DNA from: Bacillota bacterium
Lineage (GTDB): Bacteria > Bacillota > SHA-98 > UBA4971
NCBI GenBank assembly: GCA_012518595.1
Contig: JAAYRV010000004.1
Coordinates: 52,304-116,303, forward strand
DNA length: 64,000 nt
Direction: 5' to 3'
Shown here: one piece after another, positions 1,717 to 34,383 of the stretch
Position numbering within the stretch: the stretch's first letter is position 1
Layout: every line of letters starts with the position of its first letter
The notes under the pieces: model-generated
Database searches by the model: none
What the model was told of the DNA's origin: nothing
What the model saw: the letters and a program-made list of their open reading frames with translations, nothing else
Translations under genes and position numbers: made by a program

Positions 1717-3021
1717 ATGACACATATCAGGGCGCCCAGAGGAACGATAGATGTATTTCCTGAAAAACCAGGCATATGGCAGCGACTGGAGGAGACTGTA
1801 AGATCTGTATGCCGTAATGCCGGGTACACCGAGATCAGGACCCCCATTTTTGAACATACAGAGCTTTTCCAGAGAGGGGTCGGGGAAAGCACAGATATTG
1901 TGGAAAAAGAAATGTACACATTTCTTGACAAGGGAGAGCGCAGCATTACGTTGCGTCCTGAAGGCACAGCTCCGGTTGTCAGAGCCTACCTTGAACATAA
2001 AATGTGGGCCGGGCCTCAGCCTGTCAAGGTTTACTATATAGGGCCCATGTTTCGATATGAGCGCCCTCAATTAGGACGCCTCAGGCAACACACTCAGTTC
2101 GGGGTCGAAGCCCTTGGAGCGTCTTCACCTGCTTTGGATGCAGAGGTTATCTCTATACTCATTAGCGTCTATCAACATCTGGGACTTTCAGGCTTTGTTG
2201 TTCGCTTGAACAGTATCGGGTGTTCTGAGTGCAGGCCTCGTTACAAGGAAAGTCTCGTAAACCTGCTTTCGGAACATGTGGACGAGCTTTGCGCTGACTG
2301 TAGAAGAAGGCTTCGACGAAATCCCCTACGGGTTCTGGATTGCAAGAACGAACGATGTGCTATCCTTGCCAAAGAGCTTCCGCCAATATTTGAGTATCTT
2401 TGTGAGGACTGCAGTAGGCACTTCGGCGGAGTCACAGAATGCCTGAAGGCTTTGGATCTAGTCTACGAATTGGACCCAACCATTGTTAGAGGGCTTGATT
2501 ACTATACTAAGACCGTTTTTGAGGTGGTTCACTCGGGTCTCGGAGCGCAGGATGCGCTTGGGGGCGGTGGAAGGTATGACGGCCTGGCAGAAGAACTTGG
2601 CGGAACCCAAACTCCGGGCGTAGGTTTCGCTGCAGGGATAGAGCGGGCTGTCCAAGTGCTACAGGATGCAGGAGACAAGGAAACAAGTACGGACGCCGGT
2701 GAGGTCACTGTATTCATTGCTGCAATGGGTGATGAAGCCAAGATTGAAGCTTTTCGCATAACTCACGCGTTACGTAAGCAGGGTATATCCACGGATATCG
2801 ATTATCTTGACAGAAGCCTGAGAGCTCAGATGAAGTATGCAGATAGGCAAGGAGTCAAGACAGTCGTGATCATCGGCGAAGACGAGCTTAAAGGTGACTA
2901 TGTCATAGTAAGGGATATGGTAACCGGAGAGCAGACTCGAGTTCCGTTTGGAGATCTGATTAAGATTTTAACACAGAATACAATTCTTTCAAAAGACCTC
3001 AAGTTACCAAGAGAGAAGTGA
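1717..3021 (+). CDS. hisS: Histidine--tRNA ligase
   Basis: 434 aa. N-terminus 'MTHIRAPRGTIDVFPE', class II aaRS motifs and a C-terminal anticodon-binding domain. Immediately upstream of aspS, as in Bacillus. Confidence 0.92.
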   Translation: MTHIRAPRGTIDVFPEKPGIWQRLEETVRSVCRNAGYTEIRTPIFEHTELFQRGVGESTDIVEKEMYTFLDKGERSITLRPEGTAPVVRAYLEHKMWAGPQPVKVYYIGPMFRYERPQLGRLRQHTQFGVEALGASSPALDAEVISILISVYQHLGLSGFVVRLNSIGCSECRPRYKESLVNLLSEHVDELCADCRRRLRRNPLRVLDCKNERCAILAKELPPIFEYLCEDCSRHFGGVTECLKALDLVYELDPTIVRGLDYYTKTVFEVVHSGLGAQDALGGGGRYDGLAEELGGTQTPGVGFAAGIERAVQVLQDAGDKETSTDAGEVTVFIAAMGDEAKIEAFRITHALRKQGISTDIDYLDRSLRAQMKYADRQGVKTVVIIGEDELKGDYVIVRDMVTGEQTRVPFGDLIKILTQNTILSKDLKLPREK

Positions 3022-3027
3022 GCAATA

Positions 3028-4848
3028 ATGCAGAAAAAGAGAACTCATATGGTGGGAGAGCTAGCAGATGAAGCTTTTGTAGGGAAGACAGTTGTTCTTG
3101 CAGGTTGGGTTGCCAGAAGAAGAGACCTTGGTGGTCTTGTATTCATCGATCTTCGGGATCGCTCAGGTATTGTTCAGGTGGTTTTTAATCCTGAAACCTC
3201 TCCTTGCGCCCACCGAGTAGCTGAGAAGCTGGGTTCAGAGGATGTAGTATGCATATCCGGAGTTGTTGTAGAACGCCCACCCGGTGCAGTGAATCCTTCA
3301 ATCCCTACAGGCAAGGTTGATGTGGCAGCTGAGTTCCTGGAGGTGCTGTCCAAATCGAAGACTCCGCCTTTCTATATCACTGAGGATGTTGATGTTGACG
3401 AACTCCTGAGGCTTAAGTATCGATATCTTGACCTTCGAAGACCGGACATGCAGAAGAACATGATTCTTCGGCACCGCTTAACCATAGCAGTAAGGAACTT
3501 CTTAGACTCTCGAGGTTTCATTGAGGTGGAGACGCCAATGTTTATAAGGAGCACCCCGGAGGGCGCTCGCGACTATGTTGTTCCCAGCCGCGTGAATCCG
3601 GGCCGATTTTTTGCACTACCCCAATCGCCCCAGCTTTTCAAGCAGCTCTTAATGGTATCCGGATTTGATAGGTATTTTCAGATTGCGCGGTGCTTTCGAG
3701 ATGAGGACTTGCGAGCTGACAGGCAACCTGAGTTTACGCAAATTGATATTGAAATGTCTTTCATCAATAGAGATGATGTGCTTAACCTCACAGAAGACAT
3801 GATGACTCACTGTATAGAAGAGACTTTGGGGATATCAGTGGCAAAGCCTTTCCTTAGAATGTCATATGCTGACGCTATGGAACGATATGGTTCAGACAAG
3901 CCTGACATACGATTCGGCATGGAGATAAGAGACATAAGCGATGTTGTGAAAAACTGCGGTTTTCGCGTTTTTCAAGGTGCCATTGAAGCCGGCGGTAAGG
4001 TAGCTTGCATAGTGGCGCCTGGTTGTAGTCAGCTGTCCAGACAAGAAATCAAAGAACTCGAGGGAATCGTCAAGAACTTTGGCGCAGGAGGCCTTATGTC
4101 AATAGCGCTTTCTTGCGGGGAAGACGGGAACGTGACTTTCAGCTCTCAACTGACCAAGTTTCTTACAGAAACTGAATTGCAGGAAATCGCAGAAGTTACA
4201 GCAGCAAAAGATGGGGACCTGATTCTGATTGTAGCAGGCCCCGGAAACGTAGTTTTGGAGTCTCTTGGCAGATTGAGATTGCACCTAGGCGCCAAGCTGG
4301 ACCTCATCTCTGAAAATCAACTGGCATTTCTTTGGGTTACTGACTTTCCCTTGTTTGAGTTCAGCCAGGAGGAAGACAGGATAGTCGCTGTGCATCATGC
4401 GTTTACGTCTCCTTTGGAAGAAGATATTCACTTAATGGAGACAGATCCTCTGAGTGTTCGAGCTAACATGTACGATCTCGTTTTGAACGGTGTAGAGCTG
4501 GGCAGCGGAAGCATAAGGATACATAAGCGAGATGTACAGGAGAAAATATTCGGGGTCTTGGGGTTCAGCGAAGAGGAAGCCCAAGAGAAATTCGGCTTCC
4601 TTCTTGAAGCTTTTGAGTACGGCGCACCGCCTCACGGCGGGATTGCCTTGGGCTTTGACAGAATGGTTATGCTGTTGGCAGGGAGAAAGACTATCCGTGA
4701 CGTAATTGCATTCCCGAAAACTCAAAAAGCGGTATGCCCCATGACCGGAGCCCCCGGAGCAATTAGCGAAGAACAACTGACTGAACTGTATATACAGGTA
4801 GTCGACATGGGTAAAATAGGCACAAGCGGTGATACGGAGCTGCCTTGA
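3028..4848 (+). CDS. aspS: Aspartate--tRNA ligase
   Basis: 606 aa. OB-fold N-terminus, class II motifs 'FRDEDLRADRQPEFTQIDIE' and 'GGIALGFDRMVMLL'. Confidence 0.92.
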   Translation: MQKKRTHMVGELADEAFVGKTVVLAGWVARRRDLGGLVFIDLRDRSGIVQVVFNPETSPCAHRVAEKLGSEDVVCISGVVVERPPGAVNPSIPTGKVDVAAEFLEVLSKSKTPPFYITEDVDVDELLRLKYRYLDLRRPDMQKNMILRHRLTIAVRNFLDSRGFIEVETPMFIRSTPEGARDYVVPSRVNPGRFFALPQSPQLFKQLLMVSGFDRYFQIARCFRDEDLRADRQPEFTQIDIEMSFINRDDVLNLTEDMMTHCIEETLGISVAKPFLRMSYADAMERYGSDKPDIRFGMEIRDISDVVKNCGFRVFQGAIEAGGKVACIVAPGCSQLSRQEIKELEGIVKNFGAGGLMSIALSCGEDGNVTFSSQLTKFLTETELQEIAEVTAAKDGDLILIVAGPGNVVLESLGRLRLHLGAKLDLISENQLAFLWVTDFPLFEFSQEEDRIVAVHHAFTSPLEEDIHLMETDPLSVRANMYDLVLNGVELGSGSIRIHKRDVQEKIFGVLGFSEEEAQEKFGFLLEAFEYGAPPHGGIALGFDRMVMLLAGRKTIRDVIAFPKTQKAVCPMTGAPGAISEEQLTELYIQVVDMGKIGTSGDTELP

Positions 4849-4894
4849 AATCCTTAAAGGCTTATGATATCATTCACTTGCAAGCAAGAAAGAT

Positions 4895-5108
4895 AAAAAA
4901 AGGACCCTACCGTGTTCGATTTGACATCGGTAACTTTTGTTCCAACACCATTTGAAAGGGAGCCTCAGCTCCGAGTGCGGCGCGAGTGCCGTCCGGCGTG
5001 CGGAGTCGCAAAACACTTGGGAGGGCACCCACCTGCAGGGCGCAGGGATAGAAATGTTACCGGCCAGGCGGCATGGTGGGGTCGTGTTGTTCATTGAGCG
5101 GTTTTTTT
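4895..5108 (+). ncRNA. Candidate 6S RNA-like structured ncRNA (ssrS-like) downstream of aspS. The strand is not certain.
   Basis: About 215 nt of GC-rich non-coding sequence. A 12-bp terminal closing helix pairs 4903-4914 'gaccctaccgtg' with 5072-5083 'catggtggggtc' (including G-U pairs). A second internal helix pairs 4927-4934 'tcggtaac' with 5055-5062 'gttaccgg'. A T-run lies at 5102-5108. The only ORFs here are short and overlap on both strands. In Bacillus, 6S-1 RNA lies downstream of aspS (recalled). Confidence 0.4.
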
Positions 5109-5198
5109 AAGCGCTTCTTTTCATTCCGCATCCTTCCATATCCTGCATCTAGTATGTTATAATCCAATCCGGGTGAAACACAATCGGAGCGTGATACC

Positions 5199-6521
5199 AT
5201 GGATTTGTTCAGCCGCCAAGGAGATCAACTCCTGCGGCGTGAGGCGCCGCTGGCTATTCGAATGCGTCCCACTACCTTAGAGGAGTTTGTCGGGCAAGAA
5301 CACATTCTGGGTCCGGGCAAACTGCTTAGACGAGCTATCGAAGGAGACAAACTCTCATCCGTCATTTTCTACGGACCTCCCGGCACCGGCAAAACTGCGC
5401 TGGCCAATATCATAGCCGGCGCCACTAAATCGCACTTCCAGTCCTTAAACGCAGTAACATCAGGCGTCGCTGATATAAGGCGAGTCATGGAAGATGCTTC
5501 AGACAGACTTAAGATGCACGAGGCCAGGACAATTCTCTTCATCGATGAAGTTCACAGATTCAACAAGACGCAACAAGATGCGCTGTTGCCTGCGGTAGAG
5601 AACGGAACGGTCATATTTATCGGAGCAACAACGGAAAATCCGTTTTTTGAGATTAGCAGGCCACTCCTATCACGCTCACGCGTGTTCAGGTTCGAGCCGC
5701 TGGATGATGAACATATCTCCCTGATTTTGCGTCGAGCATTGGAAGATAAAGAGCGTGGCCTCGGCGAGTATGAAGCCGCAGTTTGTGATGACGCCTTCTC
5801 TCATCTGGTCAGAACCGCAAACGGTGATGCCAGGTCAGCCTTGAACGCAATTGAACTTGCGGTGCTAACAACTGAGGTAGGTGAAGACGGCGTCCGCAGT
5901 ATCACCTTGGAGATAGCGGAAGAATCCATTCAGGAGAGAGCGTTGGGGTATGACAAGAGTGGAGACGCTCACTATGACATAGTTTCCGCATTCATAAAGA
6001 GCATGAGGGGAAGCGACCCTGATGCCACCGTGTACTGGCTTGCCCGGATGATCGCGTCAGGCGAGAAGCCTGAATTCATAGCAAGAAGAATCGTGATTCA
6101 TGCAGCAGAAGATGTAGGTCTGGCTAATCCCCACGCTCTTTTGGTGGCAGCGGCAGCAGCATGGGCAGTTACCTTTGTCGGGTGGCCGGAAGCCCGGCTC
6201 ATTCTTGCAGAAGCTGCCATATACGTGGCTACCGCTCCCAAGAGCAACTCATGTTACCTGGCAATCAAGAATGCCGAACACGACCTTGAAACCGAACGCA
6301 CAGCCGAAGTTCCTCGTCATCTTCGCAACGCGTCATACAAAGGCGCTGCTTCCTTAGGACATGGTAAAGGCTACAAGTATCCCCATGAGTTTCCCGGAAA
6401 TTATGTCTTTCAGCAGTATTTGCCTCATATCTTAGCAGGCAAAACATACTATCAACCTTCAGAGAACGGATATGAGAGAACAATCAAAGAAAGGCTGGCT
6501 CTCCGGGAAAAAAATGATTGA
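5199..6521 (+). CDS. rarA: Replication-associated recombination protein A (AAA+ ATPase RarA/MgsA)
   Basis: Walker A 'GPPGTGKTALA', Walker B 'LFIDEVHRFNK', and a MgsA C-terminal domain. Confidence 0.88.
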   Translation: MDLFSRQGDQLLRREAPLAIRMRPTTLEEFVGQEHILGPGKLLRRAIEGDKLSSVIFYGPPGTGKTALANIIAGATKSHFQSLNAVTSGVADIRRVMEDASDRLKMHEARTILFIDEVHRFNKTQQDALLPAVENGTVIFIGATTENPFFEISRPLLSRSRVFRFEPLDDEHISLILRRALEDKERGLGEYEAAVCDDAFSHLVRTANGDARSALNAIELAVLTTEVGEDGVRSITLEIAEESIQERALGYDKSGDAHYDIVSAFIKSMRGSDPDATVYWLARMIASGEKPEFIARRIVIHAAEDVGLANPHALLVAAAAAWAVTFVGWPEARLILAEAAIYVATAPKSNSCYLAIKNAEHDLETERTAEVPRHLRNASYKGAASLGHGKGYKYPHEFPGNYVFQQYLPHILAGKTYYQPSENGYERTIKERLALREKND

Positions 6522-32967: not shown

Positions 32968-34383
32968 TTGATACTGTATAGGAACGTTATTACTCATGTT
33001 GATTCATGTCGTGATGGGGGTAGACGAGGTTTGGCGCGGCATCAATCACCGGACAAGACGAAACGCAGTTTCGGAATTCAGCTTACCTGGAAACTCATAG
33101 TATTTGCACTGGTATGTCTTGCTGCTTATTCCCTCACTGTAGGCGGAATACCCAGCAAGATTACGCTTATCGAAGGGAATACCAGGGAGGTTCAATTAGG
33201 CCGGCCTCTTGACCTACGTCGAACCACCTCAGGCTTGGAGCTTCTCCCCTTTGACGGCGGAGTTGAGTTAATTCCCCTTAGTCAAGGTGAAAGCAGACTC
33301 GAGGTGCGTCTCTGGGACCTGATTCCTATAAAACGAATGATTATCAATGTAGTTCCCGATATCCGAGTGCTTCCCGGGGGACAGTCAATAGGCGTTCTAC
33401 TGCCTTCCAGAGGCGTCGTGGTAATAGGACATTACCCTATAGTCGGGTCTGACGGTCGCTCCTACTATCCGGCGCGTGAAGCCGGAATTCAGGCAGGAGA
33501 TATTATTCTCAGAATCAATGGACAGCCTATCAACAGCAAATCACAGATAGAAAGTGCCATAGATAATATAGGTCGAAGCGGCGGGCAGGCCGAAGTCACC
33601 GTTTCGCGTAATTCCAGGAAAATTACGGTTAGGCTGAAGCCGGTTGCCGTCTATGATGAAAGACTGTCTGATGAACCCGGCATGCCTCATGATGAAAGGG
33701 AAACCCACTACAAATTGGGTATATGGGTGCGAGAAAATGCAGCCGGCGTCGGCACTCTGTCTTTCTACCATCCTAATTCCGGCGTTTACTGCGCACTGGG
33801 GCATGTAATCACAGATACATCCACCAATAAGGACATGGATGTGGCCAGCGGTATGATAGTTTCAGCTCAAATCCTCGGTATACACCAAGGGAGCCGCGGC
33901 CAGCCCGGAGAGAAGATCGGTACGTTCAGCGGAGAAACAGACATAATCGGAACAATAGATCGTAATACAAAATTCGGCATCTTCGGTAAGCTTACTGCGA
34001 AACCCATCAATCCCTATTTTACGGAACCGATTCCGGTAGCTCTGTCAGACGAAGTTGTGCCCGGGCCCGCCTATCTCTACACAGTCTTGGAAGAGGACAG
34101 AATAGAGCAGTTTCATGTGGAAATCCAGCGCGTGGCACGTCAAACCAGTCCTCAAATCAAAGGGCTGGTGATTCGTGTTACGGATCCACGCCTGTTGTCA
34201 GTGACCGGCGGCATAGTACAGGGCATGTCAGGCAGCCCCATCATCCAAAATAACAAGCTGGCAGGCGTATTGACCCATGTCTTTGTTTCGGATCAAACAA
34301 GAGGATACGGTGTCCTTGCCGAATGGTTGGTGCAAGATGCAAATTTTCGTCGCAATTATCACGATAGCCTCATTATACAATAG
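32968..34383 (+). CDS. spoIVB: Stage IV sporulation protein B (SpoIVB S55 signalling peptidase); start codon uncertain
   Basis: TM/signal segment, PDZ domain 'GDIILRINGQPINS', and an S55 catalytic region. It lies directly upstream of spo0A, as in Bacillus and Clostridia. Confidence 0.8.
   Translation: MILYRNVITHVDSCRDGGRRGLARHQSPDKTKRSFGIQLTWKLIVFALVCLAAYSLTVGGIPSKITLIEGNTREVQLGRPLDLRRTTSGLELLPFDGGVELIPLSQGESRLEVRLWDLIPIKRMIINVVPDIRVLPGGQSIGVLLPSRGVVVIGHYPIVGSDGRSYYPAREAGIQAGDIILRINGQPINSKSQIESAIDNIGRSGGQAEVTVSRNSRKITVRLKPVAVYDERLSDEPGMPHDERETHYKLGIWVRENAAGVGTLSFYHPNSGVYCALGHVITDTSTNKDMDVASGMIVSAQILGIHQGSRGQPGEKIGTFSGETDIIGTIDRNTKFGIFGKLTAKPINPYFTEPIPVALSDEVVPGPAYLYTVLEEDRIEQFHVEIQRVARQTSPQIKGLVIRVTDPRLLSVTGGIVQGMSGSPIIQNNKLAGVLTHVFVSDQTRGYGVLAEWLVQDANFRRNYHDSLIIQ

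Follow-up and report, generated by a model that had tools for sequence, protein, structure and literature searches.

A 6S RNA gene, in all likelihood of the 6S-1 (bsrA) type, between aspS and rarA in an uncultured Bacillota lineage

The gene for aspartate–tRNA ligase (aspS) and the gene for a RarA/MgsA-like AAA+ ATPase (rarA) are separated by a gap of exactly 350 nt in the stretch of DNA analyzed here (64,000 nt from an uncultured Bacillota bacterium; hereafter the window), and the question raised by this gap is what, if anything, it encodes. An earlier note, written by a reader without tools, had described a GC-rich region with only short overlapping ORFs on both strands and had proposed a candidate 6S RNA directly after aspS. 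The description holds in each of these respects: the gap runs from the end of aspS at 4848 to the start of the rarA-like ORF at 5199, the ORFs within it are short, overlapping, and without Pfam match, and the GC content of the region is 60% against 48.5% for the window. The proposal itself is borne out by a full-length covariance-model match, and it can be stated with high confidence that a canonical 6S RNA, of the 6S-1 (bsrA) type known from Firmicutes, is encoded at positions 4901–5086 of the plus strand.

The identification begins with a scan of the whole 64-kb window against all 4227 Rfam families at the gathering-score cut-off, for which RF00013 (6S/SsrS) was the sole match. The match lies at 4901–5086 on the plus strand, scores 68.2 bits against a gathering score of 46.4 (E = 2.5e-11), and covers model positions 1–187 of 187. 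A local and permissive scan of positions 4750–5250 (E ≤ 10) returned RF00013 again (E = 1.9e-13) and no other family. The search of both strands that had been proposed as a check gave the full-length match on the plus strand only, with neither RF00013 nor any other family reported on the minus strand of 4750–5250 at E ≤ 10. A permissive scan of the full window did not detect a second copy of RF00013 even at E ≤ 1, and no tRNA genes were found in the 64 kb. Elsewhere in the window, a weak match to a Tetrahymena snoRNA model (RF02288) at 34178–34255 on the minus strand (25.6 bits against a gathering score of 70, E = 0.12) is almost certainly due to chance. The minimum free energy (MFE) of the plus-strand RNA is −82 kcal/mol (z = −3.2), and none of 200 shuffled sequences folded as well.

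The feature that had first suggested a 6S RNA was a 12-bp helix joining the two ends of the region (4903–4914 with 5072–5083, including G-U pairs). The helix is present as described, with 12 of 12 positions paired, two of them G-U, and it extends to 14 consecutive pairs (4903–4916 with 5070–5083), but by itself it is not beyond chance. The plus strand of the window holds 23 helices of 12 bp with arms 140–200 nt apart (G-U allowed), compared to 21.7 ± 5.9 in dinucleotide shuffles, and four helices of 14 bp with the same spacing, compared to 3.6 ± 1.8. The 12-bp helix was therefore rejected as stand-alone evidence for a 6S RNA; the significance of the assignment comes instead from the covariance-model match, the MFE z-score, conservation among relatives, and covariation.

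When the Rfam consensus structure is mapped on to the window sequence, 43 of the 51 pairs are standard pairs and the RNA takes the form of the 6S rod, with a closing stem, an internal stem, a symmetric 14/14-nt central bubble (4944–4957 and 5031–5044), and an apical arm (Table 1). An inner helix had also been noted and is real, with eight of eight positions paired between 4927–4934 and 5056–5063, while the 3' arm as originally written (5055–5062) is displaced by one base and allows only three of the eight pairs. This helix is absent from the Rfam consensus model and stacks on the P2-like helix, for which pair probabilities in the free RNA are ~0.8. The motif CCCACCUG at 5027–5034, which lies across the 5' edge of the 3' bubble strand, is an exact match to the Rfam consensus. 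Folding, likewise suggested as a check on the central bubble, gave a mean probability of being unpaired of 0.80 for the 5' bubble strand against 0.31 for the whole RNA. In the unconstrained MFE structure a few weak pairs close part of the bubble, which counts against the assignment.

Table 1. Coordinates of the genes, signals, and structural elements at the 6S RNA locus, numbered from the first position of the window.
Feature	Position	Strand	Remarks
hisS	1717–3021		Upstream of aspS
aspS (aspartate–tRNA ligase)	3028–4848	+	NCBIfam NF001750, 849 bits vs cutoff 443
6S promoter, sigma-A/sigma-70-type	4845–4873	+	−35 TTGAAA 4845–4850, 17-nt spacer, TG 4865–4866, −10 TATCAT 4868–4873
5' leader, A-rich, variable	4874–4900	+	Length and sequence vary among relatives, both flanks conserved
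6S RNA body	4901–5086	+	RF00013 model 1–187, 43/51 consensus pairs, z = −3.2; nearly invariant in L001 and L002
Closing stem, 5' arm	4903–4918	+	Pairs with 5069–5083; helix 1 of consensus, 98% of cells paired
Inner helix, 5' arm	4927–4934	+	Pairs with 5056–5063, 8/8; in MFE and alifold structures (helix 2)
Predicted pRNA template	4933–4946	+	ACUUUUGUUCCAAC; predicted start opposite C4946, predicted product 5'-GUUGGAACAAAAGU-3'
P2-like ("downstream") helix, 5' strand	4935–4943	+	Pairs with 5045–5053; Rfam consensus pairs
Central bubble, 5' strand	4944–4957	+	AACACCAUUUGAAA; unpaired in Rfam consensus
Apical arm	4958–5030	+	Irregular helix, loop near 4993–4999; consensus helices 3–6
Central bubble, 3' strand	5031–5044	+	ACCUGCAGGGCGCA; Rfam consensus
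3'-bubble hairpin	5032–5046	+	5032–5036 pairs with 5042–5046
P2-like helix, 3' strand	5045–5053	+	Pairs with 4935–4943
Inner helix, 3' arm	5056–5063	+	Corrected by one base from the earlier note
Closing stem, 3' arm	5069–5083	+	Pairs with 4903–4918
U-rich tract	5087–5096	+	Directly after closing stem; degenerate here: UUGUUCAUUG
T7 run	5102–5108	+	Without conservation or good preceding hairpin; not in terminator-scan output
rarA/mgsA-like AAA+ ATPase	5199–6521	+	NCBIfam and Pfam matches (AAA, AAA_assoc_2, MgsA_C)

Relatives of the locus were sought in genomes and in metagenomes. A search with the AspS of the window against one genome per species found close relatives in just three genomes, each an uncultured Bacillota MAG whose AspS is 78–83% identical, and the two of these that extend past aspS (L001 and L002) carry a full-length 6S RNA ~55 nt after the aspS stop codon. 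Outside of this group, an uncultured Dialister (Negativicutes; L004) has a full-length 6S match downstream of aspS (3341–3515, 66.1 bits), farther off than in the close relatives. None of 17 other aspS loci, most of them from Clostridia and Lachnospiraceae, had a 6S RNA within 1.5 kb downstream of aspS, and thus the linkage of the two genes is patchy and not universal in the Bacillota. A metagenome scan that used the two bubble motifs as its pattern found 13 loci, 11 of which carry full-length 6S matches; as the motifs were the means of retrieval, invariance at those columns is uninformative for these loci. The other two (L087 and L088) have no 6S match and were set aside as chance pattern matches.

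One of the metagenome loci (L086, CZCA01000602.1) has a 6S RNA identical to that of the window with identical or near-identical neighboring proteins, and a RarA protein identical to that of the window occurs in 60 indexed blocks of public assemblies, with ENA, Logan, and NCBI GCA_040364275.1 among the sources. Combined, these observations indicate that the organism is present in many metagenomes, some of them of the bioreactor and digester type; examples are the anaerobic-digester and bioreactor samples behind CZCA01000602.1, ERZ4239849, and SRR11356277. Loci L094–L097 bear on this recurrence together with L086.

The distinct set of 6S sequences consists of seven lineage sequences from uncultured Bacillota and the Dialister copy, and the RNAalifold consensus of these eight has the 6S layout, with standard pairs in 96.3% of cells and the bubble left open. 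In this set of eight closely related sequences, from which the tested structure was itself derived, 10 pairs have changed on both sides, compared to 2.6 ± 1.4 when columns are shuffled (none of 500 shuffles has as many) and to three or fewer when the partners are slid by one to three columns; most of these changes are owed to one sequence, that of Dialister, and to the pair L091 and L093, so that the covariation statistics are thin. Compensatory changes occur in helices 3–6 of the apical arm, for example at alignment columns 74/117 and 85/106. Within this small and related sample, the 6S fold is maintained by compensatory changes.

Upstream of the RNA, a promoter of the housekeeping type overlaps the end of aspS to the extent that the TGA stop codon (4846–4848) lies inside the −35 hexamer. 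A promoter scan matched 10 of 12 positions in addition to the extended TG. The −35 element is invariant and the sequence TG-n-TAT(C/T)AT is kept, with the 17-nt spacing, in all seven lineages, including the diverged L091 and L093, which retain the promoter although the sequence surrounding it differs. Transcription would start near 4880–4882, which would give the primary transcript a leader of ~20 nt. By analogy this leader is probably trimmed, as the 5' leader of B. subtilis pre-6S-1 is trimmed by RNase J1 (PMC10578484). An A-run that had been reported at 4894–4900 actually occupies 4895–4901; it falls in the variable leader and is not conserved in the relatives.

At the other end, conservation among the aligned relatives stops right after the closing stem, where a U-rich run is found at the same place in seven of seven lineages (e.g., UUUUUUUU in L091). 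This tract is the probable 3'-end or termination signal of the 6S RNA. In the window the tract is degenerate (UUGUUCAUU), with only a weak match in the terminator scan (5068–5085 plus tail), and the exact 3' end is uncertain for this reason. The T-run to which the earlier note had pointed on the plus strand is correctly positioned at 5102–5108, but it is not conserved in relatives and is not preceded by a GC hairpin; it was rejected as the primary terminator and is probably not the primary 3' signal. A 6S RNA is expected to give a stable, abundant transcript of ~160–200 nt; what the sequence shows of one here is the conserved promoter and the U-rich 3' tract.

The neighborhood is that of a known 6S locus. 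The gene order is hisS–aspS–6S–rarA–cymR–nifS–mnmA, in which cymR and nifS denote an Rrf2/CymR regulator and a NifS/IscS cysteine desulfurase, and wherever a related locus spans these genes, the order aspS–6S–rarA is kept. The start of hisS is 12 nt after a preceding ORF (562–1704) that has weak PPIase/TPR-like matches. In B. subtilis the hisS–aspS operon is T-box regulated; no T-box leader was detected in the 64-kb window. The terminator scan found no terminator between the aspS stop codon and the 6S structure, and thus hisS–aspS transcripts should read into the 6S gene. On the far side, rarA appears to have its own promoter, based on an extended −10 element (TGTTATAAT) at 5155–5163, ~35 nt upstream of the start codon, which takes the form TGTTAT(A/G)AT in close relatives. 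In one metagenome locus (L092, 3011–4526), rarA is inverted relative to aspS–6S and converges on the 3' end of the 6S RNA with ~10–15 nt between them, while the order cymR–nifS–mnmA is kept. Transcription at that locus would have to end at the closing stem and U-tract, possibly from both sides, and the inversion together with the −10 element of rarA indicates that the 6S gene is a unit separate from rarA. That 6S-1 (bsrA) of B. subtilis lies downstream of aspS had been stated in the earlier note and is borne out by the literature (Suzuma et al., 2002, reference 20 of PMC3299989). Almost all Lactobacillales have rarA beside the 6S gene, and the two are also neighbors at the 6S-1 locus of B. subtilis (PMC8414754). 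Being downstream of aspS and adjacent to rarA, the locus matches the published 6S-1 neighborhood.

In known 6S RNAs, release is brought about by the synthesis of a short product RNA (pRNA), for which the polymerase copies the 5' bubble strand and continues into the helix next to it (PMC10578484, PMC8876501), and a candidate template for such a product can be recognized here. Positions 4933–4946 are identical to the B. subtilis 6S-1 template (AGUUUUGACCGAAC, from the pRNA sequence given in PMC10578484) at 10 of 14 positions, and it is on this match that the predicted start was placed. The predicted pRNA would begin with G and carry GG at positions 4/5 and AA at 9/10, with template A4947 beside the start site. 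A G start is needed for efficient templating by the B. subtilis polymerase and is a property of 6S-1 but not of 6S-2 (PMC3753640), while a GG dinucleotide, AA at 9/10, and a template A beside the start site have been described as pRNA hallmarks (PMC8414754). When 4933–4946 are made unavailable for pairing, the P2-like helix opens and the pair probability of the 3'-bubble hairpin rises from 0.12–0.19 in the free RNA to 0.98–0.99. A hairpin of this kind in the 3' strand of the central bubble, and its rearrangement, have been described in 6S-1 (PMC8876501).

Several other readings of the region have to be weighed against a 6S-1 RNA on the plus strand. The earlier note had left the strand ambiguous, and an antisense or otherwise structured RNA on the minus strand could be imagined that would end at the U-run complementary to A4895–4901, placed right after the stem. 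The minus strand also folds fairly well (−71.2 kcal/mol, z = −2.4). It nevertheless has the less favorable fold of the two, it gave no Rfam match at E ≤ 10, and the eight G-U pairs among the 6S consensus pairs would become C-A mismatches on it. The conserved promoter sits on the plus strand, the A-run belongs to the variable leader, and the rarA that converges from the opposite side in L092 leaves no room for a minus-strand promoter. The model match, the G-U pairs, the promoter, and the fold together settle the strand as plus, and a functional RNA on the minus strand has a negligible chance of being the correct reading. The same odds apply to a small protein. Open reading frames of 57–74 amino acids exist on both strands (4870–5094 on the minus strand, 4912–5097 and 4937–5110 on the plus strand), but ORFs are expected by chance at 60% GC, and the five that overlap the region were all without a Pfam match at E ≤ 1. 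Indels of 1 nt at two places inside the region (alignment columns 61 and 92) distinguish close relatives from one another and shift every frame, the ORFs of L001 and L002 do not have the same boundaries as those of the window, and the substitutions that are seen preserve base pairing, all of which makes a coding function extremely improbable.

It is also conceivable that there is no independent RNA gene here, the structure being no more than a large terminator or 3'-UTR element of hisS–aspS, or else a riboswitch or 5' leader belonging to rarA. The closing stem with its U-tract does resemble an intrinsic terminator, and, with no terminator ahead of the structure, aspS transcripts must read into it. 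A terminator, however, does not explain a match to the full length of the 6S model or the conservation of a dedicated promoter upstream. A rarA leader is at odds with the conserved extended −10 element that rarA has for itself and with L092, where rarA is inverted while the 6S RNA stays with aspS, and no riboswitch or leader family matches 4750–5250 at E ≤ 10. This explanation is thus highly unlikely; that the closing stem may also act as a terminator does not conflict with the 6S identity and is no alternative to it. The reading that retains somewhat more weight, while still being improbable, takes the gene for a paralog of the 6S-2 (bsrB) kind, a poor template for pRNA, instead of a canonical 6S-1. 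A single Rfam model serves for both paralogs, such that the match alone does not separate them, and the window represents only 64 kb of the genome, with a second copy possible elsewhere. Against this stand the position of the gene downstream of aspS and beside rarA, which is the locus of 6S-1 (PMC8414754 and, for aspS, reference 20 of PMC3299989), the 10 of 14 template positions shared with 6S-1, and the predicted initiation with GTP, which is the mode of 6S-1, whereas 6S-2 starts with ATP (PMC3753640).

For the preferred reading, a 6S-1 type RNA on the plus strand, a course of events can be proposed by analogy with the better studied 6S RNAs. The RNA would be transcribed from its own housekeeping-sigma promoter overlapping the aspS stop codon, and read-through from hisS–aspS probably adds to the supply. 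The primary transcript would have a variable leader of ~20 nt, probably trimmed, and a 3' end most likely at the U-rich tract. The mature RNA of ~186–195 nt would fold into the rod, with the 14/14-nt bubble mimicking an open promoter, and would bind the sigma-A RNA polymerase holoenzyme at its active site, thereby sequestering polymerase in stationary phase. Upon a nutrient upshift, the polymerase may use the 6S RNA as a template, starting with GTP opposite C4946 and producing an RNA of ~14 nt (GUUGGAACAAAAGU). This product would unwind the pairing of 4935–4943 with 5045–5053 and allow the 3'-bubble hairpin (5032–5046) to form, at which point the polymerase would be released.

A further and more tentative suggestion, which we consider possible but rather doubtful, is that the closing stem and U-tract double as the intrinsic terminator of the hisS–aspS operon, with 6S RNA derived both from its own promoter and from processed read-through. 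If so, the supply of 6S RNA would be coupled to the expression of translation-related genes, and in L092 the same stem would be a terminator shared with the convergent rarA.

The 6S family, its mechanism, and its synteny are already known biology, and a standard Rfam scan detects this gene well above threshold; only the host, an uncultured Bacillota lineage present in many bioreactor and digester assemblies, is unstudied. The value of the result is therefore mainly one of annotation, in that a 6S gene with strand, approximate ends, promoter, and predicted pRNA is provided for this lineage, and the current understanding of 6S RNA is unchallenged by it. The order aspS–6S–rarA, known from Bacillus, is now seen in this lineage too, and the aspS–6S linkage in a Dialister genome as well. 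It can be added that the RNA was recognizable from architecture and synteny alone by a reader without tools.

Among characterized 6S RNAs, the closest counterpart is 6S-1 (bsrA) of B. subtilis. Both are rods with a central bubble located downstream of aspS and beside rarA, and both have a sigma-A-type promoter of their own followed by a 5' leader (PMC10578484), which would be ~20 nt here and is 11 nt in B. subtilis. The pRNA predicted here would be G-initiated and similar in sequence to that of 6S-1 (GUUGGAACAAAAGU here and GUUCGGUCAAAACU in 6S-1; PMC10578484, PMC3753640), with a predicted start at position 46 here compared to position 40 in 6S-1. In 6S-1, as in the folding predictions for the RNA here, occupying the template stabilizes a short hairpin within the 3' bubble strand (PMC8876501). 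The "central bubble collapse helix" of 6S-1, for which the candidate here would be 4949–4953 paired with 5052–5056, is not predicted in the window (P ~0.06). The arrangement of the neighbors also differs, as yrvM lies between bsrA and rarA in B. subtilis and rarA has the opposite direction (PMC8414754), while in the window rarA comes immediately after the 6S gene and shares its orientation, and only L092 among the relatives has it inverted. The host is likewise not a Bacillus but an uncultured member of the Bacillota from bioreactor and digester metagenomes.

The 6S RNAs of the lactic acid bacteria (Lactobacillales; PMC8414754) share with the gene described here the linkage to rarA, the presence of mnmA nearby, the monocistronic organization with a promoter of its own, and pRNA hallmarks that are predicted here as well, namely a GG dinucleotide, an A flanking the start site, and AA at 9/10. 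They differ in that rarA is upstream and uspA downstream of their 6S gene, in place of aspS upstream and rarA downstream, and in that the GG dinucleotide is at pRNA positions 5/6 and not 4/5 (PMC8414754). The 6S RNA of E. coli (ssrS) is co-transcribed with ygfA, is processed by RNase E/G, and has a pRNA that starts with ATP at U44 (PMC8876501, PMC10578484), and its release hairpin has 9 bp compared to the 5 bp predicted here (PMC8876501, PMC10578484). Even so, the two RNAs belong to the same Rfam family and have the same rod-with-bubble architecture, and by homology the RNA of this lineage would share with that of E. coli the mimicry of an open promoter, a release driven by pRNA synthesis, and the formation of a 3'-bubble hairpin as the adjoining helix is unwound.
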